Assembly: GCA_035524955.1 (NCBI GenBank)
Contig: DATLFG010000105.1
Span: 7,093 to 71,092, forward strand
Length of the DNA: 64,000 bases
Source of the DNA: Candidatus Limnocylindria bacterium
Lineage (GTDB): Bacteria; Methylomirabilota; Methylomirabilia; Rokubacteriales; CSP1-6
Reading direction: 5' to 3'
Both the position numbers and the translations under genes were made by a program. Shown in pieces: positions 4,012-35,123 of the stretch. The notes beneath the pieces are model-generated. The model saw only the letters and a program-made list of their open reading frames with translations. It made no database searches and was not told the origin of the DNA. Every line of letters starts with the position of its first letter. Position 1 is the first letter of the stretch.

Positions 4012-7000
4012 ATGAAACGCTCGGACTTCGTCCATCTGCACGTCCACTCCGAGTACAGCCTGCTGGACGGCGCGGCCCGTCTCGAGAAGCTGGTCGAGCG
4101 CGCCCGCGCGCTGAAGTTCCCGGCCTTGGCGCTCACCGACCACGGCAATCTCTTCGGGGCGGTGGATTTCTACATTGCCTGCGAGAGGGCGGGGGTGAAG
4201 CCGATCCTGGGCTGCGAGCTCTACGTGGCCCCGGGCAGCCGCTTCGAGCGTTCGAGCCAGGACGGCGGCTACGAGGGCGCGAGCCACTGCACGGTCCTCG
4301 CGCGCACCCGGGCCGGCTACGCCAACCTCATGAAGCTGGTCTCCAAGGCCTACCTCGAGGGCTACTACTACAAGCCGCGCGTGGACCGGGAGCTGCTCGC
4401 CCAGCACGCGGACGGGCTCCTCGTGCTCTCGGGCTGCCTCAATTCCGAGGTGAGCCGGCAGCTCTCGGCCGGGGAAGAGGCCAAGGCACTCCAGACGGCG
4501 GGGTGGTACCAAGAGGTGTTCGGCAAGGATTACTACTTCATGGAGGTGCAGTCGCACGGTCTCGAGCAGCAGGTGGCGGTGACCGAGGGCACGATCAGGA
4601 TCGCCCGCGCCATCGGGGCCCCGCTGTGCGGGACGAACGACTCGCACTACCTCGAGGCGGATCATTCGCGCGCCCACGAGGCGCTCCTCTGCATCCAGAC
4701 CGGCACCACCATGAACGATCCCAACCGCTGGAAGTTCTCGAGCAACGAGTTCTACGTCAAGTCGGCCGACGAGATGCGCGCGGTCTTCAAGGACCTGCCC
4801 GAGGCCTACCGCAACACCCTGGCGGTGGCCGAGCGGTGCAACGTGGATCTCCAGTTCGGCCAGTTCCACCTCCCCAGGTACCAGGTGCCGGACGGCTTCA
4901 CGCTCGACTCCTATCTCGAGGAGCGCGCCTTCGAGGGGCTCAAGTGGCGCTACGGGTCCTCCCCGGCCGACGCGGTGGTCGAGCGGCTCCGCTACGAGCT
5001 GGGCGTGGTCTCCAAGATGGGGTTCTCCGGCTACTTCCTGGTGGTCTGGGACTTCATCAGCTACGCGCGCCGCCAGGGCATCGCGGTGGGGCCGGGGCGC
5101 GGCTCCTCGGCCGGCTCGCTGGTGGCCTACTGCCTCGGCATCACCAACGTGGACCCGATCCGCTACGGGCTCATCTTCGAGCGCTTCTTGAACCCCGAGC
5201 GGATCTCGATGCCGGACATGGACATCGACTTCGCGGACGATCGGCGCGACGAGGTCATCCGCTACGTGGTGGATCGCTACGGGGCGGACCGGGTCGCCCA
5301 CATCATCACGTTCGGGACCATGGGGGCCAAGGCGGTCATCCGCGATGTGGCCCGCGTCCTCGGCTTCTCCTACGGCGAGGCCGATCGCATCGCCAAGCTG
5401 GTGCCCGGCTTCCCGCTCAATATCTCGCTCGACGAGGCGCTCGAGAAGGCCCCGCCCCTGGCCGAGCAGGTCAAGCGGGACCAGCGGGTGGGGGAGATGT
5501 GGGAAGTGGCCCGCGCGCTCGAGGGCTGCACGCGGCACGCCTCCGTCCACGCCTCCGCGGTGGTCATCTCCGACGAGCCCCTGATGGAGCGGGTGCCGCT
5601 CTACAAGGATCCCAAGCGACCCGAGCTCATCACCGGCTACGCGATGGGGCCCATCGAGAAGCTCGGCCTGCTCAAGATGGACTTCCTCGGACTCAAGACC
5701 CTCACCGTGATCTCGGACGCCCTGCGCCTGCTCAAGGAGTCGCGCGGGATCGAGCTCGACGGCGACGCCCTGCCGCTCGACGACGCCCGGACCTACCAGC
5801 TCCTCACCGAGGCGCGCACCTTCGGCGTGTTCCAGCTGGAATCGGCGGGGATGCGCGACGCGCTCAAGCGCCTCAAGCCCCAGCGCATCGAGGACATCAT
5901 CGCGATGGTGGCGCTGTACCGCCCGGGCCCGATGGACCTCATCGAGGACTTCGTCAACCGCAAGCACGGCCGCGCCCCCATCGCCTACGAGCATCCCCTG
6001 ATGGAGCAGGTCCTCCAGGAGACCTACGGGATCATGGTCTACCAGGAGCAGGTGATGCGGCTGGCCGCGGACCTTGCCGGCTTCTCGCTCGGCGAGGCCG
6101 ACACGCTGCGCAAGGCGATGGGGAAGAAGGACCGCGAGCTGATGGCCACCCAGCGCGAGAAATTCATCGCGGGTTGCAAGGCCAACACGATCGATCCCCG
6201 GAAGGCCGAGCGCATCTGGGACCTGATCGAGAAGTTCGCGGGCTACGGCTTCAACAAGTGCTTGGCCCGCGACACCCGTGTCGAGATGGCCGATGGCAGT
6301 CAGAAGCTCATCACCGAGGTGCGGGCCGGCGATCTGGTGCTCACGAAGGACGGCCCCTACCGCGCGCGCGCGGTGCGCCCGAGCGGAGTGCGTCCCGTGG
6401 GTCGACTCCTCCTCGCCAATGGAATGTCGGTGCGTTGCACGCCCGACCATCCGATCTTCACGCAGCGCGGCTGGGTGAACGCGGAAGAGCTGAGCATCGA
6501 CGACTTCGTGGCGGTCACCCGGGAGCTTCCTTGCGGAGCGCAGACGGTCCCCGATCATCTGCCGGCTCTCCTCGGGCATGCACTGTCGGACGGCTCGCTC
6601 AACTATGAGGGGCATTTCTATCTGTACTCGACGTCGCAGGACGAGCTGGAGGACATGGCTGCGTCGCTCGCCCTCTTCGAGAACACGATCCCTCGTATCG
6701 AGCATCGCGCGGCGCCCAGGGCATCATCGGTCCGTCCGGTTCGCGCTGACCGCCGCCACCCCACGGGCGCGGTGCGATTCCTGTTCGAGGACTGCGGTCT
6801 GAAGGGGAAAGGGGCTCTCGACAAACGAGTGCCGTCGCTCGTGGAAGGCTGGGACCTTCGCGCCATCGCGATCCTCGTTGCCAAGCTCTTTCAAGGTGAC
6901 GGCTGCATGCATCGGAAGACGCGGTCGATCTTCTACTCGACCTCTTCGGGGGGTCTTGCCGAGGACGTCCGCCGCCTCCTGCTGAAACTGGGGCTCTCGT

Positions 7001-8772
7001 CGACGATTCACCGGAAGGAGTTCGCCTATCGCGGCGCGCGCCGACCGCGCTTCACCGTCAACCTTCTGGGCGGGCGAGTAGCCTATCGATGGTTCGACCA
7101 GCTCGTTGGGGCGCACCTTGTCGGCCGAAAGCGTGAGGGTCTTGGTGCGCTGGCGCGGGATTGCGCCGAGGCGCCGAAGCTCTTCGCCCCCGGCACGGTG
7201 GATGTCGTCCCGATGGTGCTGGCACTGGGCCCGATCCGGGAGGCCATCGCGAAGACGCATCCAAGCCTGCGGGCGGGCTGCGAGGTCCTCGGGATCTCGT
7301 ATCGGCTGCTGTTTGCGGACGGACGGAAGCGGGGCATCCGGCGCGACACCCTGAGACATCTCTCCGAAAAGCTCGATTCGCCGGCCCTCTACGCTCTTGC
7401 CGAATCCCCGATGGGATGGTCCCGCCCTCGCGGATTTACCGTCGATGGCGAGGAGCCGACTTACGATTTCGAGGTGCCCGGGGCCGCCAGCTTCATCGCC
7501 AACGGCATCGCGGTGCACAACTCCCACGCCGCGTGCTACGGCGTCGTGGCGTACCAGACCGCGTATCTGAAGGCAAACCATCCGACCGAGTTCATGGCCG
7601 CCCTGCTGACCTCGGAAATGGAGAAGACGGACAAGATCGTCCAGTACGTGGAAGAGACGCGCGCGATGGGCCTGCGCGTCGAGCCGCCCGACGTCAACGT
7701 CTCCCGGGCCGACTTCACGGTGGCGGGGGAGGCCATCCACTTCGGGCTGGCCGCGATCAAGAACGTGGGCGCCACCGCGATCGAGTCCATCGTGCGGATC
7801 CGCGAGGCGGCCGGCCGCTTCGCCACCCTCGAGGATTTCTGCGCCCGGGTCGACCTGCGCCTGGTGAACCGCAGGGTGATCGAGTCCCTGGTCAAGGCGG
7901 GCGCGTTCGACTCGCTGCAGAGCACGCGGGCCGGCCTCCTTGCCGCGCTGGACCAGGCGATGGACCGGGGCCAGCGGCAGCAGCGCGACCGCGAGGAAGG
8001 GCAGGTCTCGCTCTTCGACGCGCTGGGCGGCGGCGCCAAGCCGGCGGCCCCGCCCTCCGCGGCGGCCCGCGTGCCCGAGTGGCCGCAGGAGGAGATGCTG
8101 GCCTACGAGCGGGAGGTCCTGGGCTTCTACCTCTCCGGTCACCCGCTCGAGCAGTACCGCGAGGTCTCGCGCCGGATCGGCGCGCTCGGCGCCGCCGACC
8201 TCGCCGCGCGCTCGACGGGTGCACGCGTGCTCCTGCTGGGACAGGTGAGCGGCTTCAGCGAGAGCACGACCAAGAGCGGCAACCGCATGGCGTTCGCCAC
8301 GATCGAGCTGGTGGACGGCAGCGTTCCCCTGACGATCTTTCCCGAGCCCTACCGGAGCTGCGCGGGGGCGCTTCGGCACAAGGGGCCGGTCATCGTGCGC
8401 GGCCGCGCGGACGACAGCGACAAGGGCCGTGTCGTGCTCGCGGAGGAGATCAAGCCCCTGGAGGACGCGATGGGCAATCCGGCCCCAGCCGGCAACGGCA
8501 CCGGGAACGGGCCCGACGCCTCCGCGCACGCCTGCCGCATCCGGGTGAGCGCGGCGGCCGAGTCCCTCCCGGACCTGCTCGCCTCGGTGAAGGCGGCCTG
8601 CCGCCAGCACGAGGGCCGGACGCCGCTGTTCCTCCACGTGCTGCTGCCCGAGCAGGAGGTGGTGCTGCGGATCAAGGAGCTCGCGGTGGATCCGGCGTCC
8701 GACCTGGTGACCAAAGTAGAAGGCCTGCTCGGAGCGGGCAGTATACTCGTGGAGTATGCCGGACGAGCTTGA
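4012..8772 (+). CDS. dnaE: DNA polymerase III alpha subunit, interrupted in frame by a 421-aa intein (1586 aa precursor, about 1165 aa mature)
   Basis: A PHP-domain N-terminus ([14 protein letters not shown]) is followed by a polIIIc core. The conserved motif FAGYGFNK|SHAACYG is split by the insert; E. coli has [14 protein letters not shown] contiguous. Confidence 0.95.
6259..7521 (+). other. intein (protein splicing element) with LAGLIDADG homing-endonuclease domain inside DnaE
   Basis: Block A is CLARDTRV, with Cys at position 1 encoded at 6259-6261. Block B is [11 protein letters not shown] (TxxH). Two LAGLIDADG-like motifs are [10 protein letters not shown] and KLFQGDGC. Blocks F/G are TYDFEV...[10 protein letters not shown], followed by the +1 Ser of the extein. 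The His-Asn is encoded at 7516-7521. The length, 1263 nt, is an exact multiple of 3. Confidence 0.85.
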
Positions 8773-9709
8773 GTTCGAGAAGCCGCTCCTCGAGCTCGAG
8801 AACCGCATCGCGGAGCTGCGCGCTTCGGAGGAGCCGCTCGAGGCGCGCGACGAGATCGCGAAGCTCGAGGAACGCCTCGCCCGCCAGCAGCAGCGCGTCT
8901 ACTCGAGCCTGACCGCCTGGCAGCGCGCCCAGATCGCCCGGCACCCCAAGCGCCCGCACACCCTCGACCTCGTCAACCTGCTGCTGGAGGACTGGGTCGA
9001 GCTGCACGGCGACCGGGTCTTCGGCGACGACAAGGCGATCGTGGGCGGCCTCGCGACCTTCGACGGCGAGCCGGTGGTGCTGATCGGCCACCAGAAGGGC
9101 CGCGACACGCGCGAGAACATCGCGCGCAACTTCGGGATGCCGCACCCGGAGGGCTACCGCAAGGCCCTCCGGCTGATGCAGCTCGCGGCCAAGTTCGGCA
9201 AGCCCATCATCACGTTCATCGACACGCCCGGGGCCTATCCGGGGCTCGGCGCCGAGGAGCGCGGGCAGGCCGAGGCGATCGCGCGCAACCTGCGGGAGAT
9301 GGCGGGCCTGCCCACCCCGGTGATCTGCGTGGTGACCGGGGAGGGAGGGAGCGGCGGGGCCCTCGCCATCGGGGTCGGCAACCGGGTGCTGATGCTCGAG
9401 TACGCGATCTACTCGGTGATCTCGCCCGAGGGCTGCGCGGCCATCCTGTGGGGCGACGCGGCCAAGGCCCCGGAGGCGGCCGAGCTGATGCGGGTGACCG
9501 CACCCGATCTCCTCAAGCTGGGCGTCATCGACGCCATCGTTCCCGAGCCAGTCGGGGGCGCCCACCGGAACTGGGAGGCCACCGCGGCCAGCCTGCGCGC
9601 GGCCCTCCGCGATCAGCTCTGGCAGCTCAAGTCCAAGGCGGAGGCCCAGCTGATCGAGGAGCGGCACGAGAAGTTCCGCCGCATCGGCGTCTTCGAGGAG
9701 ACCGTCTGA
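8756..9709 (+). CDS. accA: acetyl-CoA carboxylase carboxyltransferase alpha subunit
   Basis: The N-terminus [18 protein letters not shown] and the [15 protein letters not shown] oxyanion region are present; length is 317 aa. The start overlaps the dnaE stop by 17 nt. Confidence 0.9.
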
Positions 9710-9800
9710 CTCATCCCCCGGAGTTTGACATGCCCGGGGGTGGGTGTTACCGTAACTTCCGATCACTTATGCGGAATTTTCCTCCGCCGGCTTCGGCCTG

Positions 9801-11114
9801 ATGTCCAAGCTTCACCTGATCACCTACGGCTGTCAGATGAACGAGTACGACTCCGAGCGCGTGGCGGGTCTGCTCAAGCAGGAACGGTACGAGCTCACGG
9901 ATCGCCCGGAGGACGCCGACCTGATCCTGCTCAATACGTGTTCGATTCGAGAGAAGGCCGAAGACAAGGTCTTCTCGCAGCTCGGAGCCCTGCGGCACCT
10001 CAAGCGCGAGCGGCCGGATCTGGTCATCGGGGTCATGGGCTGCATGGCGCAACTGCAGAAGGGGCGGATCCAGGAACGTGCCCCCTATGTGGACCTGGTC
10101 TTCGGCTCGCCCGCGATCGCACAGGTCGCCGAACTGGTCGGCCGCGCGCGGCAGGGGCGGGGACCGGTGCTCGAGACCGGCGAAGGGGCGCTCGTGAAGA
10201 TCACCGCGCGACCCGAGGGCGGCCTCCGGTTGAAGGCCTTCGTCACCGTCATGGAGGGCTGCGAGAAGCACTGCACCTTCTGCGTCGTGCCGACCACGCG
10301 CGGCCGGGAGCGCAGCCATCCGCCCGAGGTCGTCGTGGACGAGATCCGTGGGCTCGCGGAGGCGGGGTGCCGGGAGGTCACGCTCCTCGGTCAGACCGTG
10401 AACGCCTACGGCCGCGACCTGAGCCCCCCGACGGATCTGGCGGCCCTGCTCGAGCGCGTGAACGACATCGACGGGATCGAGCGCATCCGCTTCACGACCT
10501 CGAACCCGTACAACCTCACGCCCCGGCTCATCCGCGCCATCCGCGACGTCCCCAAGGTCTGCGAGTACCTGCACCTGCCGCTGCAGTCGGGCTCGGACCG
10601 GGTGCTCGAGCGGATGAATCGCGGCTACACGCGTGCCCGCTACCTCGCGCTGATCGCGGAGCTCCGGAGCACGGTGCCGGACCTCGCGCTCTCCACCGAC
10701 CTCATCGTGGGGTTTCCCGGCGAGACCGAGGAGGACTTCGCGCGGACGGTGGAGATGGTCGAGGAAGTCGGCTACGACAACGTCTTCGCCTTCCGCTACT
10801 CGCGCCGGCCGGGCACACCCGCGGCGGAGATGGACGATCAGGTGCCGGAAGAGGTCAAGGCCGACCGGAACCGGCGCATCCTGGAGACGGCGGGCCGGGT
10901 GGGCGCGGCGCGCAGCCGGCGCCTCGAGGGCCGCACACTACCCGTCCTGGTCGACGGCGTCTCGCGCAAGAACGCGGGCGAGGCGGCCGGGCGCACCCGC
11001 TGCAATCGAGTGGTGAACTTCGATCCCGGAGGGCGCGACCTGCTGGGCCGCGTGGTGCCGGTGCGCGTGGTCCGCGCCCTGCCTCACAGCCTCCGCGGGG
11101 AGCTAGAGGCCTAG
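9801..11114 (+). CDS. miaB: tRNA (i6A37) methylthiotransferase MiaB
   Basis: The N-terminal UPF0004 motif is YGCQMNEYDSERVAGLL (MiaB-type rather than RimO-type). A radical-SAM CxxxCxxC is at EGCEKHCTFCVVP, and a C-terminal TRAM domain is present. Confidence 0.85.
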   Translation: MSKLHLITYGCQMNEYDSERVAGLLKQERYELTDRPEDADLILLNTCSIREKAEDKVFSQLGALRHLKRERPDLVIGVMGCMAQLQKGRIQERAPYVDLVFGSPAIAQVAELVGRARQGRGPVLETGEGALVKITARPEGGLRLKAFVTVMEGCEKHCTFCVVPTTRGRERSHPPEVVVDEIRGLAEAGCREVTLLGQTVNAYGRDLSPPTDLAALLERVNDIDGIERIRFTTSNPYNLTPRLIRAIRDVPKVCEYLHLPLQSGSDRVLERMNRGYTRARYLALIAELRSTVPDLALSTDLIVGFPGETEEDFARTVEMVEEVGYDNVFAFRYSRRPGTPAAEMDDQVPEEVKADRNRRILETAGRVGAARSRRLEGRTLPVLVDGVSRKNAGEAAGRTRCNRVVNFDPGGRDLLGRVVPVRVVRALPHSLRGELEA

Positions 11115-11124
11115 GAGGCGCACC

Positions 11125-11658
11125 ATGTGGCTGGAGATGAAAGTGAAGGGGCTCGCGCTCGATCCGCTCTCCAACATGCCCATGATCATCCTCCGGGACG
11201 ACGAGGAGAAGCGCTCCCTGCCCATCTGGGTGGGCCTCTTCGAGGCCAACGCGATCGCGCTGGAGCTCGAGAAGATCTCCACGCCCCGGCCCATGACCCA
11301 CGATCTCATCAAGAACATCCTGGAGTCGCTCGACACCCGGGTGCAGAAGATCGTGGTCAACGATCTCCGCGACAACACCTTCTACGCGGTCATCCATCTC
11401 CGCCTGGGTACCGCCGACATCACGGTGGACTCGCGACCGTCGGACGCCATCGCCCTGGCCCTGCGGGTGGGGGCGCCGATCTTCGTCGAGGAGGACGTCG
11501 TCCAGAAGGCCCGCTCCGTGGAGGTCGCCAAGGAGACCGAGATCGGAACCGGCAAGGGCGATGACCAGGCCAAGATCAAGGAGTGGCTCGAGTCGCTGAA
11601 GCCGGGCGACTTCGACCGGATCGAGCGCGGCAAGGACCCGAAGAGCCCGGACGAGTAG
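11125..11658 (+). CDS. bifunctional nuclease (BFN/DUF151) family protein
   Basis: Carries the DUF151 hallmark LPIWVG...EANAIALELE...RPMTHDL with an acidic C-terminal tail. The start lies 10 nt after the miaB stop. Confidence 0.65.
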   Translation: MWLEMKVKGLALDPLSNMPMIILRDDEEKRSLPIWVGLFEANAIALELEKISTPRPMTHDLIKNILESLDTRVQKIVVNDLRDNTFYAVIHLRLGTADITVDSRPSDAIALALRVGAPIFVEEDVVQKARSVEVAKETEIGTGKGDDQAKIKEWLESLKPGDFDRIERGKDPKSPDE

Positions 11659-11661
11659 TGG

Positions 11662-12810
11662 ATGCGGGTCGGGCTGTTCACCAACAACTACCTGCCGTTT
11701 CGTGGCGGGGTCGCGACGGCCGTCGAGACCCTGCGGCGGGGGCTCGAGGCGCTCGGGCACCGGACCTGGATCTTCGCGCCGGCCGCCCGCCCGCCGCACG
11801 CCGACCCGCCGTACGTGTTCCGCTACCCGTCGATTCCCGCGCCGACCTATCCCGGCTTCTCGCTGCCGCTGCCCATCTCGCGTCGCCTCGGGCGGGTCGC
11901 CCGCGCGCTCGACCTCGACGTCATTCACGTCCATCATCCGTTCCTGCTCGGTCTGGCCGGCCGGCGCCTCGCGCGGAGCCAGCGGCGCCCGCTCGTCTTC
12001 ACGTATCACACGCACTACGAGAAGTACGCGCACTACGTGCCGCTGCCGCCGCGGCTGGTGCGGAGCCTTGCGGTGCGCCTGGCCTCCCGCTTCGCCGATT
12101 CCGCCGACCTGGTCGTGGCCCCGTCCGAGCACGTGGCCGAGACCCTGCGCCGGCGGGGCGTGCGCACGCCGGTCGCGATGATCCCCACCGGCGTGGACCT
12201 CGAGCTCTTCAGCCCGGCCAGCCGGGAGCGCGCCCGCCATCGCCTCGGCCTGCCCGCCGACGGGGTGATCTGCCTCTACACCGGCCGGCTCGACCGCGAG
12301 AAGAGCCTCGAGCGGGTGCTCGACGCCTTCGAGTCGGTGGCGGCCGCGGTGTCGACCGCCACGCTGCACCTGGTGGGCAAGGGCAGCCACGGCCCGGTGC
12401 TCGAGCGGCGCGCGGCCGCGAGCCGGGCGCGGCGCCGGATCGTCTTCCACGGCGGGCTCCCGCCCGAGGCGCTCCCCGACTACTATCGCGCCGCCGACCT
12501 GTTCCTCTTCGCGTCCGAGACGGAGACGCAGGGGCTGGTGCTGGCGGAGGCCCACGCCTGCGGGCTTCCCGCGGTGGCGGTGCGCGCCCCGGGGGTGGAC
12601 GAGGTGGTAACCGACGGCGAGACCGGGATCCTCACCAAGGCGGAGACCAGCGAGATGGCCGACGCGGCCATCGGGCTCCTGCTGGACGCCGGCCGGCGCG
12701 CGAGCATGGGCCGGGCGGCGCGCCGCCTCGTGGAAGCGCGCTTCGCGGCGCCCCGACAGACCGCGGCCATGGTCGCGCAGTACGAAGCCCTGCTGGCGCG
12801 GCGGCCCTGA
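11662..12810 (+). CDS. glycosyltransferase family 4 (GT-B, group 1)
   Basis: The N-terminus MRVGLFTNNYLPFRGGVA and a C-terminal EtoG motif (FASETETQGLVLAEAHACGLPAVA) are present. Its stop overlaps the next ATG (TGATGG). Confidence 0.8.
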   Translation: MRVGLFTNNYLPFRGGVATAVETLRRGLEALGHRTWIFAPAARPPHADPPYVFRYPSIPAPTYPGFSLPLPISRRLGRVARALDLDVIHVHHPFLLGLAGRRLARSQRRPLVFTYHTHYEKYAHYVPLPPRLVRSLAVRLASRFADSADLVVAPSEHVAETLRRRGVRTPVAMIPTGVDLELFSPASRERARHRLGLPADGVICLYTGRLDREKSLERVLDAFESVAAAVSTATLHLVGKGSHGPVLERRAAASRARRRIVFHGGLPPEALPDYYRAADLFLFASETETQGLVLAEAHACGLPAVAVRAPGVDEVVTDGETGILTKAETSEMADAAIGLLLDAGRRASMGRAARRLVEARFAAPRQTAAMVAQYEALLARRP

Positions 12811-13079
12811 TGGCGATCCCGTCGCCCGGCCGGAGCCTGCGGGTGGGATTCCAGACCGAATGGGATCCCCACAGCGCCGGGCCCGGCCGCCAGGGGCTGC
12901 TCTCCTGGGATCCCCGCGTGCGCACGCTGCTGCGGGTGCTCGTGTCCTATCCGGAGGTGCGCTACGTCCTGCCCGACCGCATCAGTCTCGAGCCCGCCGC
13001 CGATCCGCGCACGCTCGAGACCATGGCCCGCTTCCTCGAGCGGCAAGGCTGGCTGGTGCGGCGGGTGGCGGTGAGCTGA
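12810..13079 (+). CDS. hypothetical small protein (89 aa), translationally coupled to neighbours
   Basis: The ATG overlaps the GT4 stop (ATGA), and the ORF ends 4 nt before the next ATG. There is no recognisable domain. It was found only as an in-frame M at the 3' end of a longer artifact ORF. Confidence 0.3.
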   Translation: MAIPSPGRSLRVGFQTEWDPHSAGPGRQGLLSWDPRVRTLLRVLVSYPEVRYVLPDRISLEPAADPRTLETMARFLERQGWLVRRVAVS

Positions 13080-13082
13080 GGG

Positions 13083-14393
13083 ATGATCTGGAACCGCGAC
13101 GCCGAGACGGCCCCGCGCTCCGCGATGCGGGCGCTCCAGGACGACCGGCTGCGGGCGAGCGTGGCCTGGGCCCGCGCGCGCGTGCCCTTCTATCGCGACG
13201 CGCTCGCCGCCGCCGGGGTTCGGGACGACGCGGTGACGCTGGATCGCCTCGCGGAGCTTCCCTTCACGGTGAAGGACCACCTGCGCCAGCACTACCCGTT
13301 CGGGCTCTTCGCGGTGCCGCGCGAGTCGGTAGTCCGCATCCACGCCTCTTCCGGCACCCGGGGGAAGCCCACGGTGGTGGGCTACACGCGCAACGACCTC
13401 CGCGTGTGGCGGGAAGTGATGGCGCGGTCGCTGGCCGCCGCCGGGGCGGAGCCCGGCCAGCTCATCCAGATCGCCTACGGCTACGGCCTCTTTACCGGGG
13501 GCCTGGGCTTCCACGACGGCGCCGAGCACCTGGGCCTCACCGTGGTGCCGGTCTCCTCGGGCAGCACGCACCGCCAGATCCTGCTGCTCCAGGACTTCCG
13601 CCCGCAGGGCCTGGCGTGCACCCCGTCCTTCGCCCTCCACATCGGCGAGAGCCTGCGGGAGCAGGGAAGCGATCCCCGGGCGCTGGGTGTCTGCTACGGC
13701 CTCTTCGGCGCCGAGCCGTGGACGGAGGCGATGCGCGCGCAGCTCGAGGCGCTCTGGGGCTGCCCGGCGGTGGATTTCTACGGGCTCAGCGAGATCATCG
13801 GGCCCGGGGTGGCGGGCGAGTGCGCGGAGGCCCGCGAGGGCCTGCACGTCAACGAGGACCACTTCCTGCCCGAGATCGTTGACCCGCGGAGCGGGGCGCC
13901 GTTGCCCTGCGGGCAGGAGGGCGAGCTCGTGCTGACCTCGCTCACCAAGGAAGCCCTCCCGATGATCCGCTATCGCACCGGCGACGTCACCCACCTCGAT
14001 CCCGCGCCCTGCCGCTGCGGGCGGACCACGGTGCGGATGGGGCGCATCAAGGGACGCACCGACGATATGCTGATCATCAAGGGGGTCAACGTGTATCCCT
14101 CCCAGCTCGAGGCGGCGCTCCTGACGGTGGCGGACCTGGCGCCGCACTACCAGCTGGTGGTGGACCGGCGGGAGGCCTTCCCGACACTGGCGGTGCACGT
14201 GGAGCCGGACGAGCGCGTGGTGCGCGAGTGGGGTGGCTTCGAGGCCGCGCCCACCCGGCTCGCCGCACTGTCCGCCCGGGTGGCCGCGTGCCTGCGGGGC
14301 CACCTCGGGCTCAATCCGGAGGTCGCGGTCGTGGCGCCGAAGACCATCCCGCGCAGCGAAGGCAAGGCGGTGCGGGTCGTGGAAAGGAGATAG
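13083..14393 (+). CDS. phenylacetate-CoA ligase (PaaK/CapK/F390-synthetase) family adenylate-forming enzyme
   Basis: A 436-aa protein showing the PaaK-family layout: SSGTRGKPTVV P-loop equivalent, GYGLFTGGLG, YGLSEIIGPGVAGEC, and the C-terminal LIIKGVNVYPSQLEAAL. Confidence 0.8.
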   Translation: MIWNRDAETAPRSAMRALQDDRLRASVAWARARVPFYRDALAAAGVRDDAVTLDRLAELPFTVKDHLRQHYPFGLFAVPRESVVRIHASSGTRGKPTVVGYTRNDLRVWREVMARSLAAAGAEPGQLIQIAYGYGLFTGGLGFHDGAEHLGLTVVPVSSGSTHRQILLLQDFRPQGLACTPSFALHIGESLREQGSDPRALGVCYGLFGAEPWTEAMRAQLEALWGCPAVDFYGLSEIIGPGVAGECAEAREGLHVNEDHFLPEIVDPRSGAPLPCGQEGELVLTSLTKEALPMIRYRTGDVTHLDPAPCRCGRTTVRMGRIKGRTDDMLIIKGVNVYPSQLEAALLTVADLAPHYQLVVDRREAFPTLAVHVEPDERVVREWGGFEAAPTRLAALSARVAACLRGHLGLNPEVAVVAPKTIPRSEGKAVRVVERR

Positions 14394-14395
14394 GC

Positions 14396-15220
14396 ATGGC
14401 GAAGCGTGACGAAGCCCGGCTGCTGGCCCGCATCGAGGCGGGCGAGCGCATCGAGTCCCCGGACGAGATGACGGAGGCGTACCGCGAGAACCTCATCCAC
14501 CTCATGACCATGCAGGCCGACTCGGAGCTGGCGGGCGGCTACGGCTACGTGCCGTGGATCGCGAAGGCACCCGGGGTGGAGGAGAAGCACGTGGTGGCCC
14601 AGATCGTGAAGGACGAGCTCCGCCACGCCACCGTCATGTACGGGCTCCTCGCCGACCTGGGCGTTGACGTGGAGGCGCACGTGCGGGCGCACGACGAGGC
14701 GTTCACGATGCGGGTGGCCGACGACGCCGACATCGGCACCGCCCGCATCACCGCCGACAAGCGGGTGAACATCTTCTACTACCCGATCGACACCTGGGCC
14801 GACTTCATCTTCTTCAACTTCTGCATGGACCGCGGCGCGGGTCACCAGCTCGAGGACGTGCGCACCTGCTCCTACGGGCCCTGGGTGCGCGCGATCGAGG
14901 GCATCTTCAAGGAGGAGAAGTTTCACATCCGCCACGGCGAGGTCTGGGTGAAGCGCCTCGCCGAGGATCCCAAGACCCGCGACGAGGCGCAGACCACGCT
15001 GAACAAGTGGTACATCCGCACCATGAACATCTTCGGACGCCCGGGCTCGGCCAAGAACGTCCTCTACCGGAAGTACCGGCTCAAGCTGCGCGACAACGAC
15101 GAGGTCCGTCAGACCTTCGCGCGAGAGGTCGCGGAGAAGGCGGGCGGGGTCGGGCTCACGCTGCCCGAGTGGAACCCGGTCTGGGACCGCCTGCCCGAAG
15201 AGGCGCAGATCCCCGGGTGA
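14396..15220 (+). CDS. PaaA-like ferritin-fold di-iron protein (1,2-phenylacetyl-CoA epoxidase subunit A homolog), orphan
   Basis: Shows colinear similarity to E. coli PaaA. EAYRENLIHLMTMQADSELAG matches DAYRKTLIRQIGQHAHSEIVG, FYYPIDTWAD matches FNYPTLSWAD, and RTCSYGPWVRAIEGIFKEEKFHIRHG matches [25 protein letters not shown]. ExxH di-iron ligands are present. No paaB, paaC, paaD or paaE genes are adjacent. Confidence 0.7.
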   Translation: MAKRDEARLLARIEAGERIESPDEMTEAYRENLIHLMTMQADSELAGGYGYVPWIAKAPGVEEKHVVAQIVKDELRHATVMYGLLADLGVDVEAHVRAHDEAFTMRVADDADIGTARITADKRVNIFYYPIDTWADFIFFNFCMDRGAGHQLEDVRTCSYGPWVRAIEGIFKEEKFHIRHGEVWVKRLAEDPKTRDEAQTTLNKWYIRTMNIFGRPGSAKNVLYRKYRLKLRDNDEVRQTFAREVAEKAGGVGLTLPEWNPVWDRLPEEAQIPG

Positions 15221-15870
15221 GCGCGCTCCGCGTCGTCTTGCTGGCGCTGCTCGCGCTGGCTGCCGTCGCGCCTGTCGCGGCACAGAGCGGCCGCCAGGTG
15301 AAGGTGCTGCTGGAGCTCACGCAGCAGACCCAGGGCGCCCGTCAGGGCGTGCAGGGACAGGGGGGCATCGTCGTGGAGGAGCGCCGCGGAGCCCCCCGGG
15401 CGCGCGGGCGGGGCGGCCTTGCGGTGGAGGACACCACCACCCGCGTCACGCGATCCTCCGGGCTCTTCACGGTGGTGCAAGACGGCGGGGCCGGCTCGAT
15501 CCTGGTCGCGCAGGACGTCCCGTACCGGCAGATGGCCTACTACCACGACTACGCCACCGGCAAGGGCCACGTCGCTCAGGGCGTCGCGTGGCAGCGGGTG
15601 GGTACCGCGCTCGCAGTGCGCCCGGTGATCCTGCCCGGCAACCGCATCCGGGTCACGCTGACGCCGGTGATCAGTTACTTCACGCCCGGCGGCGGGGGAA
15701 CGATCGAGGTGGTGGAGGCGGCGGCCGACCTGATCGTGCCCAACGGTGGACGCCTGCAGATCGGCGGCAGCACCGGGAGCCTCCACGCGATCACGCGGCA
15801 GATCCTCGGCTACCGCTCCGAGCAATCGTCGGAGGAGACGGCCCTGACGCTCACCGCGACCATCCAGTGA
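15217..15870 (+). CDS. hypothetical secreted protein (signal peptide)
   Basis: The GTG start overlaps the upstream TGA (GTGA). The N-terminus LRVVLLALLALAAVAPVAAQS is a Sec signal, and the mature part is Gly/Thr/Val-rich. Confidence 0.5.
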   Translation: MSALRVVLLALLALAAVAPVAAQSGRQVKVLLELTQQTQGARQGVQGQGGIVVEERRGAPRARGRGGLAVEDTTTRVTRSSGLFTVVQDGGAGSILVAQDVPYRQMAYYHDYATGKGHVAQGVAWQRVGTALAVRPVILPGNRIRVTLTPVISYFTPGGGGTIEVVEAAADLIVPNGGRLQIGGSTGSLHAITRQILGYRSEQSSEETALTLTATIQ

Positions 15871-16574
15871 CCCGCTACGGCGGCAACCGCGCCTACAGCT
15901 GCGCCAACAGCATGTACATGGCGCTGCGCGAGTCGGGCGCCACCGCCGCGGAGCTGCCCGAGCCGGGCTTCATCGAGTGCCTGACCACGATGCCCTTCGG
16001 CACGCTCTACCTGCGGGTCGGACGCGATCTGCTCGTCTATTTCAGCTCGCCGCTCGCCTCCCCGGACCAGGGGATCACCACCGCGCTCGACGTCCTCGGC
16101 TGGGAGTGCCGGGAGGAGCGCGACGGCGCACCCGAGGCCGCGCTGGCCCGGCTTGCCGAGGCGGCCGGGCGTGGGCCGGTCCTGGCGGGGCCGCTCGACA
16201 TGGGTGGGCTCGGCTACATGCCACATCATGCCCAGCTCTCGGGCAGCGATCACTTCGTGGTGGTGCTGGGCGTCGAGAACGACCGGGTGCGCATGCACGA
16301 CCCCGACGGCTATCCGTACGCGGTCCTGCCCACCGCGGAGTTCCTGCGCGCCTGGAAGGCCGACCGCGTGCGCTCCGCTCAGGTCCCGTACACGATGCGC
16401 ACGGGTTTCCAGCAGGGGCGCGTGGCGGCCGCCGGCCTCCTCGAGCGCAAGGCGCGCTGCTTCGGGGAGGCGCAGTACGCCGCGGTGCAGGAGCGGTGGG
16501 AGGACACCGCCGGGTTGCTCGAGTGCATCGCCGACCTCGAGGACGCCCTGATCCACGCGCTGAGCCCGGCGTGA
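15867..16574 (+). CDS. hypothetical protein, possibly BtrH-N/C39-like cysteine peptidase fold
   Basis: The GTG start overlaps the upstream TGA. An N-terminal Cys sits in CANSMYMALRESG, and conserved His and Asp lie later (VRMHDPDGYPY). The fold assignment is tentative. Confidence 0.45.
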   Translation: MTRYGGNRAYSCANSMYMALRESGATAAELPEPGFIECLTTMPFGTLYLRVGRDLLVYFSSPLASPDQGITTALDVLGWECREERDGAPEAALARLAEAAGRGPVLAGPLDMGGLGYMPHHAQLSGSDHFVVVLGVENDRVRMHDPDGYPYAVLPTAEFLRAWKADRVRSAQVPYTMRTGFQQGRVAAAGLLERKARCFGEAQYAAVQERWEDTAGLLECIADLEDALIHALSPA

Positions 16575-16586
16575 GGCCCGGGCTCA
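16563..16586. terminator. GC-rich hairpin between convergent genes (possible bidirectional terminator)
   Basis: GAGCCCGG-cgtgaggc-CCGGGCTC forms a perfect 8-bp stem with an 8-nt loop. It lies exactly between the + gene ending at 16574 and the - gene ending at 16584. No U-tract is present, which is common in high-GC genomes. Confidence 0.35.
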
Positions 16587-16955
16587 GCGTCCGGCCGTGA
16601 AGTAGCGCTCCGGTAGTACATCCTCGACCCGCAGTAACAACGCCTTCCGGACGACGGCCTCGCGGAGCGGGACCAGGGCGACCATCTCCGGGTCGTGCCG
16701 GACGGCGTCCAGGCCGTCCCGCGTGTCGAACCGCAGGAGATGGATCTCGTCCGGGGCGTCGGGGTTGGGGCCGCCGGAGGCGGCCAGAGACGGGATGAGG
16801 ATGCGCTCGAACCGTCCGCCGTGCCGACGGTAGACGGGCAGGGCCAGGATCTCGTATCGGCGGAGGGCTTCGGTCTGGCCGGGGTGGAGATAGATCAGCG
16901 CCAGGTAGAGCGTTCCGTCGGTCACGAGGGCCGGATTGTACTTAACATAATGTAC
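16584..16955 (-). CDS. DUF1330-like small protein
   Basis: YLALIYLHPGQTEALRRYE...HGGRFERIL...DEIHLLRFDTRDGLDAVRHDPEMVALVPLR resembles the DUF1330 dimeric alpha/beta-barrel layout. The true start is uncertain: the ORF extends to 17012, and a GTG at about 16955 was chosen. Confidence 0.4.
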   Translation of the reverse strand, partial: VHYVKYNPALVTDGTLYLALIYLHPGQTEALRRYEILALPVYRRHGGRFERILIPSLAASGGPNPDAPDEIHLLRFDTRDGLDAVRHDPEMVALVPLREAVVRKALLLRVEDVLPERYFTAGR

Positions 16956-16992
16956 CTTATCGGACTGTAACGGGGGTCGCCAGGGGCGGGCC

Positions 16993-17577
16993 CTACTTCG
17001 CGACCGGCTCAAGCGCGCCGATACGGCTCCGGACGTCGTCGGCCCGCCGGGTCTCGGGGGCCTCCTCGAGCAGACGCTCGTAGGTCGCGCGCGCCTCGGC
17101 GGGTTTGCCGGCCAGCGCCTGCGCCCGGGCCAGATCGAGCAGCGCCTCCTCGAAGAAGAACTGCTTCGGGCCGAGCCCGCCCACGGCCGCCTCGTAGGCG
17201 GTCACCGCGCTGGCGTAGTTCTTCTGAGCCTCCCACGTATAGCCCACGCCCGAGGCGCTCAGCGTGCGCAGGCTGCCGCCGGCGCCCTTGGCGAGCGCGA
17301 TCTCATAGGCAGCGCGCGCCGCCGCGTAGTCGCCGGCCTGGTACTGCAGATTGCCCAGCTGGTAGGCGGCCTGGGCGGCCGCCGTCGAGCGGCCGTGCTC
17401 GGCCAGGATGGCCTGGAGCATCGCGATGGCCTTCTGCCGCGCCTCCGGTGTGGCCAGGGGCCCCTCGCCCTGCTGGACCGCCTCGGCGGCGCCGGCCAGC
17501 GCGGCCTGGCCGCGCGACTCTCCGACGCGCATCCAGAGCCAGCCCGCCGTCCCCACGAGGCCAAGGGCCACCACCAC
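16993..17577 (-). CDS. membrane-anchored tetratricopeptide-repeat protein
   Basis: One N-terminal TM helix (VVALGLVGTAGWLW) is followed by TPR-like Ala/Tyr-rich repeats (AAYQLGNLQYQAGDYAAARAAYEIALAK...). The gene starts about 60 nt downstream of the bactofilin stop. Confidence 0.6.
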   Translation of the reverse strand: MVVALGLVGTAGWLWMRVGESRGQAALAGAAEAVQQGEGPLATPEARQKAIAMLQAILAEHGRSTAAAQAAYQLGNLQYQAGDYAAARAAYEIALAKGAGGSLRTLSASGVGYTWEAQKNYASAVTAYEAAVGGLGPKQFFFEEALLDLARAQALAGKPAEARATYERLLEEAPETRRADDVRSRIGALEPVAK

Positions 17578-20999: not shown

Positions 21000-21242
21000 A
21001 TGAAGCGCTACGTGCTGACCCTGGCCTGGATCCTCTGGGCCCACGAGACCGCGCAGGTGGGCAACCAGGTCATCGACCGCGGCTACACCGCGATCGATTC
21101 GTTCGAGACGCGCCAGCTCTGCCACGCGGCCATGACGGACTACTCGGGGCTCAAGCTGGTCCGGCAGGGCAAGGTCCGCGTGGAGTTCACGTGCCTGCCC
21201 GAGAAGACCAGCCCGAAGGCGCCGCGGACGGCCGTCGGCTAG
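21000..21242 (+). CDS. hypothetical small secreted protein (80 aa)
   Basis: The ATG follows an AGGGGGA RBS. It has a signal-like N-terminus (MKRYVLTLAWILWAHETAQ) and two Cys residues. Confidence 0.45.
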   Translation: MKRYVLTLAWILWAHETAQVGNQVIDRGYTAIDSFETRQLCHAAMTDYSGLKLVRQGKVRVEFTCLPEKTSPKAPRTAVG

Positions 21243-21275
21243 CGCCGGGCGGCCGGGCGCCACTGGCGTCAGGGT

Positions 21276-22508
21276 TCAGGCCCCGTTGCGGGGCGCCGGC
21301 GGGGCCGACTGGTTGATGCCCACCGGGGCATTGGCCTCGAACGGGCTCCAGAGCCCGAGCTCCTTGCCCATCTCGCGCACCGCCGGGAGCACCTCCTGCC
21401 CCAGCAACCGGATGCAGGTGGTGGCGTCCTGGTTGCTCACGAAGCCGTCGCTCGCCCAGAAGCCCAGGATGGACGGGCGCGTCTCCTCGAGCAGGCGGCG
21501 GAGCTTGGGGAGGACCGTCTTCGGCGTGCCCGCGATGATCTGCTGATCGCGGATCTGGTCCTCGAAGGCCGCGGCCCGCGGGTTCGCGGCGCGGCCGACC
21601 GCGAACTCGACGAAGGCCTTGCGGTAGGACGGCGAGAAGTACCCCGAGGGGCTCGACCACACCGGGTGCGCCAGGCCGGTGAACTCGCCCTGCATCCACA
21701 TGAACTGCCGTGCGTTGGCGAGCGCCTTCTCCTCGGTCTCGGCCACGTGGCAGCGCTGGAGATACCCGCGGTTCTCCGGCCCGCCGGTGTAGCCGGCCTC
21801 CGCGGCGACCGAATCGTAGAGCTCCCAGATCTTCTTGGTGGCGTCGATCGCGGTGCTGAGCGCGATGTAGGGATAGCGCTGGCGCGCGGCCCAGACGATC
21901 GTCTCCTTGCTGAGCACCCCCGGGATCCAGATGCGCGGGTGGGGCTTCTGCAGCGGCATCGCCCAGGGGTTCACCACGCGGTGCTGGTAGTGGGTGCCCT
22001 CGAAGCGGAACGGCCCCTCCTGCGTCCACGCGCGCACGATCAGCTCGTGGGCCTCCTCGAAGCGCTCGCGGTTGAAGGCGGGGTTCACCCCGGTGGCGAG
22101 CTGCTCCTGCCCGCCCCCGCGCACGAAGCCGGAGACGAGCCGCCCGCGCGAGACCATGTCGATCATGGCCAGCTCTTCCGCGAGGCGCACCGGGTTGTCG
22201 GCGAGCGGCAGCGGATTGCCGAGCAGCACGATCTTCACGCGCCGGGTCACCGCGGCGAGGATCGAGGCGAAGACGTTGCACTTGGCCTGCATACAGAAGG
22301 GCGCGTTGTGGTGCTCGTTCAACATGATGCCGTCGAAGCCCACGTCCTCGGCCAGGCGGTAGTGCTCGAGGTACTCGTTGTAGAGGCGGCTGCCCGCCAC
22401 CGGATCGAAGTGGCGGTTCGAGAACATCAGCGCGGTGGCGCCCCGCTTGCGCCCTTCTTCCTCCGGGTACGCCGACATCGGCTGCTCCGTGAAGTACATG
22501 AGGTGCAT
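21276..22508 (-). CDS. LLM-class (luciferase-like) flavin/F420-dependent oxidoreductase
   Basis: A 410-aa TIM-barrel LLM family protein with GFDGIMLNEHHNAPF, RVKIVLLGNPLPLADNPVRLAEELAMIDMVSRGRL and IAGTPKTVLPKL. Confidence 0.85.
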   Translation of the reverse strand: MHLMYFTEQPMSAYPEEEGRKRGATALMFSNRHFDPVAGSRLYNEYLEHYRLAEDVGFDGIMLNEHHNAPFCMQAKCNVFASILAAVTRRVKIVLLGNPLPLADNPVRLAEELAMIDMVSRGRLVSGFVRGGGQEQLATGVNPAFNRERFEEAHELIVRAWTQEGPFRFEGTHYQHRVVNPWAMPLQKPHPRIWIPGVLSKETIVWAARQRYPYIALSTAIDATKKIWELYDSVAAEAGYTGGPENRGYLQRCHVAETEEKALANARQFMWMQGEFTGLAHPVWSSPSGYFSPSYRKAFVEFAVGRAANPRAAAFEDQIRDQQIIAGTPKTVLPKLRRLLEETRPSILGFWASDGFVSNQDATTCIRLLGQEVLPAVREMGKELGLWSPFEANAPVGINQSAPPAPRNGA

Positions 22509-33497: not shown

Positions 33498-34400
33498 ATG
33501 CGGATCGGGTTCGTGGGCCTGGGCACGATGGGTGGACCGATGGCGAGGCGGCTGGCCGCGCAGGGTCATCAGGTGACCGGCTACGACGTGGACGCGGCCC
33601 GCGCCGCGCGCGCTCGCGAGAGCGGGGTCATGCTGGCCACTTCTCCGGCCGGCGCCGCGGAGGGCGCCGACGCCGTGCTCTCGAGCCTGCCGGACCCGGC
33701 CGCGCTCCGGCGCGCCTACCTGGGCGCCGATGGCGTGCTCGGCACCGTGAGGTCGGGCGCCACCCTCATCGACCTGAGCACGGTGGACCCCGACACCTGG
33801 CGCGAGGTCGCGGTGGCCGCGCGGGCCAGGGGCGCGGACTGCCTCGACGCGCCGGTGAGCGGCGGCCCGGCCGAGGCGGGTACCGGGAAGCTGGTCTTCC
33901 TGGTCGGGGGCGACGCCGCGGTGCTGGAGCGGTGCCGCGCGCTGCTGATGACCCTGGGGACCGAGATCCACCACGTCGGCCCGCTGGGATCGGGCCAGAT
34001 CGTCAAGATCGTCAATAACGTGATGTCCATCGGCAACGTGGCGGTGGCCGCGGAGGCCATGGTGCTGGGCGTGAAGGCGGGGATGGACCCGCAGCGCCTC
34101 TTCGACATCCTGTCCACGAGCGGCGGGCGCTCGCACCATTTTCTCAAGCGATTTCCGAATGTTCTGGCCGGAGACTTCACGCCCTACTTCGGCATCGGGC
34201 TCTCGCGCAAGGATGTCTCCCTCGCGCTGGGCATGGCCGCCAAGCTCGAGGTGCCGATGCTCGTGGCGTCCACGGTGCGCCAGGTCTACGAGGCCGCGCA
34301 CGCCCAGGGTTTCGGCCAGCTCGACATGGCCGCGGTCACCCGGCTCTACGAGCACTGGACCGGCGTCACGGTACGCGCGAAGCCGGAGCCCGCCGACTAG
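33498..34400 (+). CDS. NAD(P)-dependent oxidoreductase, 3-hydroxyisobutyrate/6-phosphogluconate dehydrogenase-like
   Basis: MRIGFVGLGTMGGPMARRLA Rossmann motif with an NAD_binding_2 plus NAD_binding_11 layout. A GAGGAGA RBS is present. Confidence 0.85.
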   Translation: MRIGFVGLGTMGGPMARRLAAQGHQVTGYDVDAARAARARESGVMLATSPAGAAEGADAVLSSLPDPAALRRAYLGADGVLGTVRSGATLIDLSTVDPDTWREVAVAARARGADCLDAPVSGGPAEAGTGKLVFLVGGDAAVLERCRALLMTLGTEIHHVGPLGSGQIVKIVNNVMSIGNVAVAAEAMVLGVKAGMDPQRLFDILSTSGGRSHHFLKRFPNVLAGDFTPYFGIGLSRKDVSLALGMAAKLEVPMLVASTVRQVYEAAHAQGFGQLDMAAVTRLYEHWTGVTVRAKPEPAD

Positions 34401-35092: not shown

Positions 35093-35123
35093 CGTCGCTC
35101 CTTTCGGTCCCAGCTGATCGATC

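Follow-up and report, generated by a model that had tools for sequence, protein, structure and literature searches.

We examined a 64,000-nucleotide (nt) stretch of DNA with 70% GC (hereafter the window) from Candidatus Limnocylindria bacterium, which the GTDB places in the Rokubacteriales (contig DATLFG010000105.1, positions 7,093 to 71,092 of the forward strand). In this window the tRNA methylthiotransferase gene miaB is followed by a string of seven genes on the same strand, one of which encodes a 274-amino-acid (aa) member of the PaaA family of di-iron proteins. To our knowledge, PaaA has been described as working only within the PaaABC(D)E complex. The protein studied here has a full set of predicted di-iron ligands, lies directly behind a gene for a PaaK-type phenylacetate-coenzyme A (CoA) ligase and is found without genes for the other subunits nearby; we tentatively read it as a stand-alone aryl-CoA oxygenase. 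The genes at the locus are the following:

9801..11114, + strand: miaB, tRNA methylthiotransferase (TIGR01574, 513 bits against a cut-off of 355)
11125..11658, + strand: BFN-domain (DUF151) protein, 177 aa (PF02577, E 4.6e-43)
11662..12810, + strand: GT4-family glycosyltransferase, 382 aa (PF13439 and PF00534)
12810..13079, + strand: small protein, 89 aa, no family (third-position GC 0.90)
13083..14393, + strand: PaaK-type phenylacetate-CoA ligase homologue, 436 aa (PF00501 and PF14535)
14396..15220, + strand: PaaA-family di-iron protein, 274 aa (PF05138, 140.7 bits)
15217..15870, + strand: signal-peptide protein with a secretin-type domain ('mini-secretin'), 217 aa (PF00263)
15867..16574, + strand: BtrH_N-like papain-fold protein, 235 aa (PF14399, 23.6 bits, sub-threshold)

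The seven open reading frames (ORFs) behind miaB had been listed in a preliminary description of this DNA, and we confirm all of them at the same coordinates on the + strand, with a third-position GC content of 0.90–0.96, the coding signature of a 70% GC genome. The domain calls made there for the BFN, GT4, PaaK-like and PaaA-like proteins were likewise recovered by our profile searches. For comparison, species-representative genomes were scanned with an alignment of the PaaA-like protein, which gave 281 tblastn-confirmed relatives. The best 80 of the 281 were analysed; they are 76–96% identical and all of the Rokubacteria type, a few coming from bins labelled otherwise. Together with four loci found by exact-protein look-ups they form the locus set, which gives 83 Rokubacteria loci besides the window and in which the window proteins were mapped by tblastn, ~20 kilobases (kb) around each homologue were inspected, and presence was counted only at loci with enough flanking sequence.

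The PaaA-like protein scores 136.2 bits with the PaaA model TIGR02156 (cut-off 280), 54.7 bits with the PaaC model TIGR02158 (cut-off 133.35) and 30.9 bits with the model TIGR03225 (cut-off 499.1) of BoxB, a protein of ~470 aa compared with 274 here. Among PDB sequences searched with phmmer, the PaaA chains 4iit and 3pvr match best (E ~1e-22 to 1e-23), followed by SSO1313 (4mud) and then BoxB. The AlphaFold model of the protein (predicted local distance difference test, pLDDT, 83.6; predicted template modelling (TM) score, pTM, 0.83) is of low confidence solely at residues 105–127, and in a Foldseek search it finds PaaA first (TM 0.76–0.80, E 2.5e-11), then SSO1313 (E 1.5e-8), PaaC (E 1.6e-6), BoxB (E 3.5e-5) and aldehyde-deformylating oxygenases. 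The di-iron ligands of E. coli PaaA, which we take to be E42, E72, H75, D126, E155 and H158, fall in an alignment with PaaA and PaaC of E. coli K-12 on E44, E74, H77, D145, E174 and H177 of the window protein. All six positions are invariant in 85 of 85 Rokubacteria sequences, and E. coli PaaC lacks those ligands in the same alignment. Published work on PaaA places E72 and D126 next to the di-iron centre, describes K103 as a substrate 'door' and assigns to F108 the orientation of the phenylacetyl group (PMC4498308). The equivalent of F108, F127, is again invariant (85/85), and the equivalent of K103, K122, is retained in 82 of the 85 sequences.

The family PF05138 also takes in the non-catalytic PaaC, and the window protein gives weak matches to generic ferritin-fold families; both would suit a non-catalytic ferritin-like protein, be it a PaaC-like structural subunit or an iron-storage or protective protein. 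The invariant ligands, which are missing from E. coli PaaC, the PaaC score that stays well below the PaaA score, and the ranking of PaaC chains under PaaA by fold speak against this idea, however, and we give it hardly any credit. Profiles and ligands together instead point to a catalytic-type member of the PaaA_PaaC family that is neither PaaC nor a canonical PaaA orthologue, which agrees with the earlier call of an orphan PaaA homologue.

The second element of the finding is the missing partners. When all Paa proteins of E. coli were used as tblastn queries on the whole window and 89 related loci, no paaB, paaC, paaD, paaX or paaY gene was found in the window or the Rokubacteria loci, and paaB, paaC, paaD and paaE are absent both from the 64-kb window and within 10 kb in 84 Rokubacteria loci. 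Gene calls on the related contigs agree. The preliminary description was therefore right in stating that these four genes are lacking and that the string is not a canonical catabolic paa cluster. The sole PaaC matches are the PaaA-like gene itself at the distant loci L087 and L088, and the sole PaaE match is a weak ferredoxin-domain match at 35.9–36.2 kb, ~20 kb off, inside a Fer2-FAD-NAD reductase (35124-36161, − strand). We considered this reductase as the missing PaaE and rejected it: its Fer2 domain is arranged N-terminally and the gene adjoins that of a Rieske protein. With the Rieske protein and an Amidohydro_2 gene it makes up a − strand group at 34397-36161 that looks like a separate oxygenase system.

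Another way to read the locus is as part of a split canonical system, with the protein as the alpha subunit of an ordinary PaaABC(D)E epoxidase, the genes for the remaining subunits lying in other parts of the genome. The window protein is indeed nearest to PaaA by sequence and by fold, and our inspection covered the ~20 kb around each homologue. It is, however, only 30% identical to E. coli PaaA and far under the equivalog cut-off. In PaaA, a lysine bridge between Lys68 and Glu49, Glu72 and Asp126 has been proposed as the path of electron transfer from PaaE (PMC4498308); this bridge is absent from the window protein, and so is the C-terminal tail of PaaA. Considering also that no partner gene turned up within the distances given above and that the window's only Fer2-FAD-NAD reductase adjoins a Rieske protein, we judge a split system to be quite unlikely.

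The ligase next to the PaaA-like gene, which had been described as PaaK/CapK-like, proved to be of true PaaK type. It shares 50% identity with E. coli PaaK across 431 aa, matches PaaK1 of B. cenocepacia (2y27) with E 5.9e-126 and has the architecture AMP-binding (PF00501) plus AMP-binding_C_2 (PF14535); with the models TIGR02155 and haloarchaeal PaaK it scores 539.5 bits (cut-off 646.3) and 517.7 bits (cut-off 700), respectively. The PaaK-like gene adjoins the PaaA-like gene at 64 of 75 assessable loci, and the junction between the two is tight in 48 of 70. A 384-aa protein (P0001) that joins a PaaK C-terminus to PaaA was examined as a natural fusion and discarded, its linker being a frameshifted alternative frame, that is, a sequencing or gene-calling artefact. 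A third Paa-type enzyme is found in sister genomes. At least 12 related loci have a gene for a PaaI-type hotdog thioesterase downstream of the secretin-like gene (L016 11492-11935; L008, L010, L013–L015, L017, L018, L020, L022, L024–L026), the count being 12 of 70 assessable loci. In seven sister loci it stands between the secretin-like and the BtrH-like gene, and it is missing from the window and its four closest relatives. Among NCBIfam models, PaaI fits this thioesterase best (TIGR02286; 107.9 bits, cut-off 118.9), and its identity to PaaI of E. coli is 34–42%.

The neighbourhood as a whole is nested and variable in content. At its upstream side, miaB is present at 54 of 56 assessable loci, the BFN gene at 63 of 64 and the GT4 gene at 64 of 66; further downstream the small ORF is kept at 54 of 75, the secretin-like gene at 25 of 73 and the BtrH-like gene at 9 of 61, the last two being confined to the nearest relatives. 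The end of the row always abuts a convergent TPR and bactofilin gene pair. Conservation in other genomes, which the preliminary description had proposed to check, thus holds for the PaaK/PaaA-like pair but not for the full set, which in its exact seven-gene order and without the PaaI-like gene occurs only in the nearest relatives L005, L006, L007, L009 and probably L011. The most constant neighbours are the BFN gene and the oxygenase gene, and GT4 keeps with BFN and miaB whether or not PaaK is present. Several genomes have an unrelated variable gene between GT4/small ORF and PaaK/PaaA (L056 9166-9954; L063 9177-9986; L034 1590-2363; L024 7680-8636; L064 7573-8658). All copies of this inserted gene share the C-terminal motif VAREVVPxxAERLI(R/A)EEIxRLR, and the L056 copy has a weak response-regulator receiver match.

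The PaaK-like gene is absent at 11 of the 75 loci, where the gap is too short for it or is occupied by another gene. Most of these loci have PaaK-bearing nearest neighbours; L055, for example, is 97.4% identical to L068. The pattern points to several independent losses of PaaK during which the PaaA-like gene stayed intact. In a comparison of accA, miaB, BFN, GT4, PaaK and PaaA-like, the PaaA-like gene shows the highest conservation at 49 of 64 loci. At L052 (Methylomirabilia, 9471-10819) it overlaps the stop codon of BFN, and miaB, GT4, the small ORF and PaaK are all missing there.

We then have to consider the wider family. A search of 1.84 billion cluster representatives returned 940 relatives of the PaaA-like protein at E up to 0.001, and most of these clusters fall outside both PaaA and PaaC. 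Representatives of canonical PaaA reach ~100–122 bits against the window protein, no better than many short proteins of 240–290 aa from neither group. Several of the short relatives (P0122, P0126/P0136, P0129, P0133 and P0145; 259–284 aa, 35–58% identical) were inspected on their contigs, where no paaB, paaC, paaD or paaE was found among the called genes. Unlike the window protein, none of them lies in a miaB-BFN-GT4 context. P0133 and P0145, 35–38% identical to the window protein, are both lone PF05138 genes: the former is preceded by an ECH_1 crotonase gene, the latter (35% identical) by two crotonase genes with PaaF (306 bits) and PaaG (222.8 bits) among their best models. P0126/P0136 and P0129 are tandem PF05138 pairs adjoining GT9/GT2 or GNAT genes; in P0126/P0136 both members have the ligands, and GT9 and GT2 genes come after the pair. 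Outside the 76–96% clade, P0122 (58%; L085 8001-8849, and L086) is the closest relative; it is again a lone gene, whose neighbourhood is quite different: a dCache-guanylate cyclase gene flanks it, and it runs convergent with a row of ybeY, HIT, mtaB and rsmE. With mtaB this is a second, possibly coincidental, case of closeness to a MiaB-family methylthiotransferase. Around the PaaA-like clade, Paa-type CoA-ester enzymes recur and the epoxidase partner subunits never do.

These data bear on a further reading, in which the protein is a PaaK-independent housekeeping hydroxylase acting on a substrate other than a CoA thioester, for instance a base of an RNA, a lipid or the precursor of a cofactor, and the PaaK neighbourhood is incidental. 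The top local conservation of the PaaA-like gene, its survival of several PaaK deletions, its constant synteny with housekeeping genes, including its place directly after BFN in L052, and the lone P0122 gene facing the ybeY, HIT, mtaB, rsmE row all fit such a role. All characterised relatives (PaaA and BoxB) act on aryl-CoA, however, the equivalents of the substrate-door residues K103 and F108 are conserved, and PaaK, PaaI and PaaF/PaaG-like crotonases recur near family members in different lineages. We therefore hold this alternative to be unlikely, if worth keeping in mind. A special form of it makes the protein a hydroxylase of a macromolecule or cofactor, for instance a MiaE replacement that hydroxylates the tRNA product of the upstream MiaB. 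A hydroxylase of this sort would explain the high conservation, the fixed housekeeping position and the survival after PaaK loss. The MiaE-like idea, suggested by the miaB gene upstream and by the MiaB-family gene close to P0122, is weakened because the P0122 neighbour at L085 is MtaB, not MiaB, and because the protein has no match to the MiaE family PF06175 and reaches just 16.8 bits with PF13794, under the cut-off of 25.2. We see a very slim chance for this special form as a whole.

The remaining genes of the string do not form one pathway with the pair. The preliminary description had treated all seven genes as one translationally coupled module, perhaps for an acylated or aryl-modified glycoconjugate, with the GT4 enzyme, the ligase, the oxygenase, an acyltransferase-like BtrH protein and an exporter-like protein as its parts, and it had drawn the coupling from the tight junctions. 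The junctions themselves are as described, all but one: a 3-nt gap from BFN to GT4, a 3-nt gap from the small ORF to the PaaK-like gene, a 2-nt gap from there to the PaaA-like gene and GTGA overlaps of −4 nt each at 15217 (PaaA-like/secretin-like) and 15867 (secretin-like/BtrH-like) were found again, and the junction from GT4 to the small ORF is TGATG, a 1-nt overlap (TGA 12808-12810, ATG 12810-12812), rather than ATGA. The string, however, is the tail of a 13-gene + strand row that starts at coaX (160) and runs through guaB-like, guaA, an intein-containing dnaE, accA and miaB to BFN and onward. Here dnaE and accA overlap by 17 nt, guaB-like and guaA are 10 nt apart, and the gap between miaB and BFN is 10 nt in the window, with GGAGG inside it, and an overlap of 16 nt in 37 of 67 relatives. 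The miaB-BFN junction is as tight as those within the string, and the tight packing starts upstream of BFN, not at BFN. Since tight junctions also join unrelated housekeeping genes, they argue for co-transcription and not for shared function, and the long co-directional row is probably co-transcribed. In such compact genomes, overlaps of stop and start codons do not delimit pathways. Promoter- and terminator-like sites were not above shuffled controls in consensus scans, which are weak for this phylum; in the same scans the sole + strand terminator-like site inside the string falls in the BtrH-like gene (16013-16032). The string region gave no RNA element in Rfam and tRNA scans.

The GT4 protein is nearest to glycolipid synthases and falls under every equivalog cut-off (NF049988, MGlcDAG synthase, 185 against 400 bits). 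The 89-aa protein has 363 homologues, all unnamed or 'hypothetical', and those source names that bear a taxon are all Rokubacteria or Methylomirabilota; we take it to be a real gene that, as far as these homologues tell, would be specific to Rokubacteria. Its AlphaFold2 model (pLDDT 84.6) has a ferredoxin-like beta-alpha-beta-beta-alpha-beta fold, for which Foldseek found nothing at E<0.01, the best generic matches being S6, VapD, Cas2 and RAM-like proteins. We tried it as an analogue of PaaB or of an effector protein and dropped the idea: E. coli PaaB has no tblastn match here, the modelled fold is the generic ferredoxin-like one with no PaaB match, and the small ORF is missing in 21 of 75 loci, of which 15 still have both PaaK and PaaA.

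The next protein had been called secreted. It does have a Sec-type signal peptide (N-terminus VSALRVVLLALLALAAVAPVAAQS), and beyond the earlier call residues 85-186 match a secretin-type domain (PF00263, 34.1 bits; cut-off 27.5). With 217 aa and no N-domains it is short compared with canonical secretins of 400 aa or more, and a PDB sequence search with it gave no match. The 202–210-aa proteins encoded after P0133 and P0145 were checked as homologues and turned out to be related solely to each other. The gene is a lineage-restricted addition. Its start overlaps the stop codon of the oxygenase gene, whose product is cytoplasmic.

The last gene had been called C39/BtrH-like. The window protein has PF14399 (BtrH_N) at 23.6 bits, under the Pfam cut-off of 29.7, and its homologues of 313–320 aa carry PF14399 and PF27157. 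An alignment with P0391, a 313-aa homologue that shares 98% identity with the window protein in the first 185 residues, reveals a clean in-frame deletion of 78 aa in the latter (residues ~185–262, junction near 16416-16418). This could be a genuine recent deletion, by which the window copy may be impaired, or a collapse in the assembly. Inspection of the sequence alone gives a Cys...His...Asp pattern (YSCANS, SDHFVVV, HDPDG). The family is patchy and includes Aspergillus, Caenibacillus, Streptomyces and a Thermoplasmata archaeon, a distribution as expected of an accessory gene; its presence in Aspergillus at 42–46% identity suggests horizontal spread.

Taken together, the glycoconjugate module has in its favour the string junctions of −4 to +3 nt, a recurrent acyl-thioester theme (the ligase, the thioesterase in relatives, the BtrH_N-like papain-fold protein) and the GT9 and GT2 genes behind the distant tandem pair P0126/P0136. 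Yet the full set is limited to the closest relatives, the PaaK losses leave the PaaA-like gene in place, the window BtrH-like protein has its 78-aa deletion and belongs to a family spread like an accessory gene, an unrelated response-regulator-like gene separates GT4 from PaaK/PaaA in several genomes, GT4 stays by BFN and miaB irrespective of PaaK, and dnaE/accA and miaB/BFN are joined just as tightly. We regard a single module as very unlikely and this claim of the preliminary description as not supported. An anti-phage defence reading (a nuclease plus a 'conflict' GT4) was also set aside, and PADLOC gave no match. The seven genes are, judging by their distribution, a patchwork and not a single pathway: beside the pair stand GT4 with the small protein, the mini-secretin and the shortened BtrH-like protein, whose functions are separate or unassigned.

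A few further features of the window deserve mention. The dnaE gene (4012-8772) has a 422-aa intein at 6259-7524 (Cys750 ... His-Asn1171) with Hint, LAGLIDADG_3 and intein-splicing domains; the DnaE proteins encoded on related Rokubacteria contigs measure 1160–1168 aa and are free of inteins. On the − strand a 142-aa ORF without a family match (16584-17012) converges on the string, its stop 10 nt from that of the BtrH-like gene, and it is limited to the clade that has the string's last genes. At 21212-21294 ARAGORN calls a tRNA-Ala(agc) for which the Rfam tRNA model is silent at its gathering threshold; the call may be spurious, or the tRNA degenerate.

For the PaaK/PaaA-like pair, our best explanation, which we offer tentatively, is a two-gene aryl-CoA module in which a stand-alone aryl-CoA oxygenase is fed by PaaK, with a PaaI-type thioesterase added in sister genomes. 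Starting from the observed gene identities, the conserved ligands, the loci without partner subunits and the pattern of conservation, we infer the substrate, reaction, oligomeric state and electron donor of the PaaA-type protein as follows. The PaaK-type ligase would turn phenylacetate or a close aryl-acetate analogue into the CoA thioester. The PaaA-type protein, binding its di-iron centre through E44, E74/H77, D145 and E174/H177, would then oxygenate this thioester by ring epoxidation or hydroxylation without the help of PaaB, PaaC, PaaD and PaaE; it would probably be a homo-oligomer that stands in for the PaaA/PaaC pseudo-dimer, and its electrons would come from a ferredoxin or reductase not dedicated to it. 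Where present, the PaaI-like hotdog thioesterase may release, hydrolyse or proof-read the (hydroxy)aryl-acetyl-CoA. The oxygenase would be the anchor gene and PaaK an accessory feeder that can be lost. Aryl-CoA can also arise from 2-oxoacid oxidoreductases. PaaK would be dispensable because aryl-CoA can be obtained by such other routes. Indirect support for phenylacetyl-CoA epoxidation is limited to the K103/F108 equivalents and the Paa-type neighbours.

Several observations weigh against a PaaK-fed aryl-CoA oxygenase and keep our preference tentative. PaaK is missing beside an intact and equally conserved PaaA-like gene in the 11 loci described above, and from this repeated loss it follows that the oxygenase does not need an adjacent ligase. 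Syntenic core status together with top local conservation is unusual for a catabolic enzyme. With 136 bits the protein falls short of the 280 bits that the PaaA equivalog model requires, and the low-confidence part of its model, residues 105–127, includes the putative substrate-door residues. Moreover, the Lys68/Glu49 pair of the lysine bridge is replaced by Ile70/Tyr51, both invariant in the 85 sequences, and the ~50-residue C-terminal tail of PaaA is missing.

The presence of a lone PaaA relative across an uncultured soil order, together with the lone copies beside PaaF/PaaG-like enzymes, suggests that partner-free aryl-CoA oxygenases exist. If this is true, the protein could serve as a minimal model of these oxygenases and, in Rokubacteria, as a marker for the metabolism of aromatic acids; it would also give access to the many short PF05138 proteins that are uncharacterised (940 clusters).

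How does this protein compare with the systems already known? With PaaA of E. coli and Klebsiella (PDB 3pvr, 3pw1, 4iit) it shares PF05138 and the four-helix-bundle fold (TM 0.76–0.80), the E / ExxH / D / ExxH ligand set, the K103/F108 equivalents and the SYGP motif, and it is likewise encoded beside a PaaK-type ligase. It differs from PaaA in being ~30% identical and ~35 residues shorter, with an internal insertion of ~17 residues and without the C-terminal tail, in having Ile70/Tyr51 in place of Lys68/Glu49, and in lacking nearby genes for PaaB, PaaC, PaaD and PaaE. In addition, its gene belongs to the syntenic core of a whole order, whereas PaaA is part of a patchy catabolic cluster. BoxB (PDB 3pm5, 3per) is a di-iron aryl-CoA epoxidase that functions without a PaaC-like structural subunit (PMC4498308), and as a benzoyl-CoA 2,3-epoxidase it sets a precedent for a single-subunit oxygenase in the superfamily. 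At ~470 aa it is distantly related, however, and it has a dedicated reductase, BoxA, of which none is seen beside the window protein. The second-best structural match, SSO1313 of Sulfolobus solfataricus (PDB 4mud), is a short ferritin-like member of the PaaA_PaaC family, labelled 'phenylacetic acid degradation-related'; it has 235 aa, is ~22% identical to the window protein and was crystallised alone as four identical chains with no partner subunit. SSO1313 is uncharacterised and so gives no functional guidance. In the literature that we searched, neither a stand-alone PaaA of this kind nor a paa system of Rokubacteria is described. What appears to be new is a partner-less, ligand-complete PaaA-family protein, in most cases paired with PaaK, whose gene is part of the syntenic core of an uncultured order, and we would expect its chemistry to be close to the known Paa and Box chemistry.

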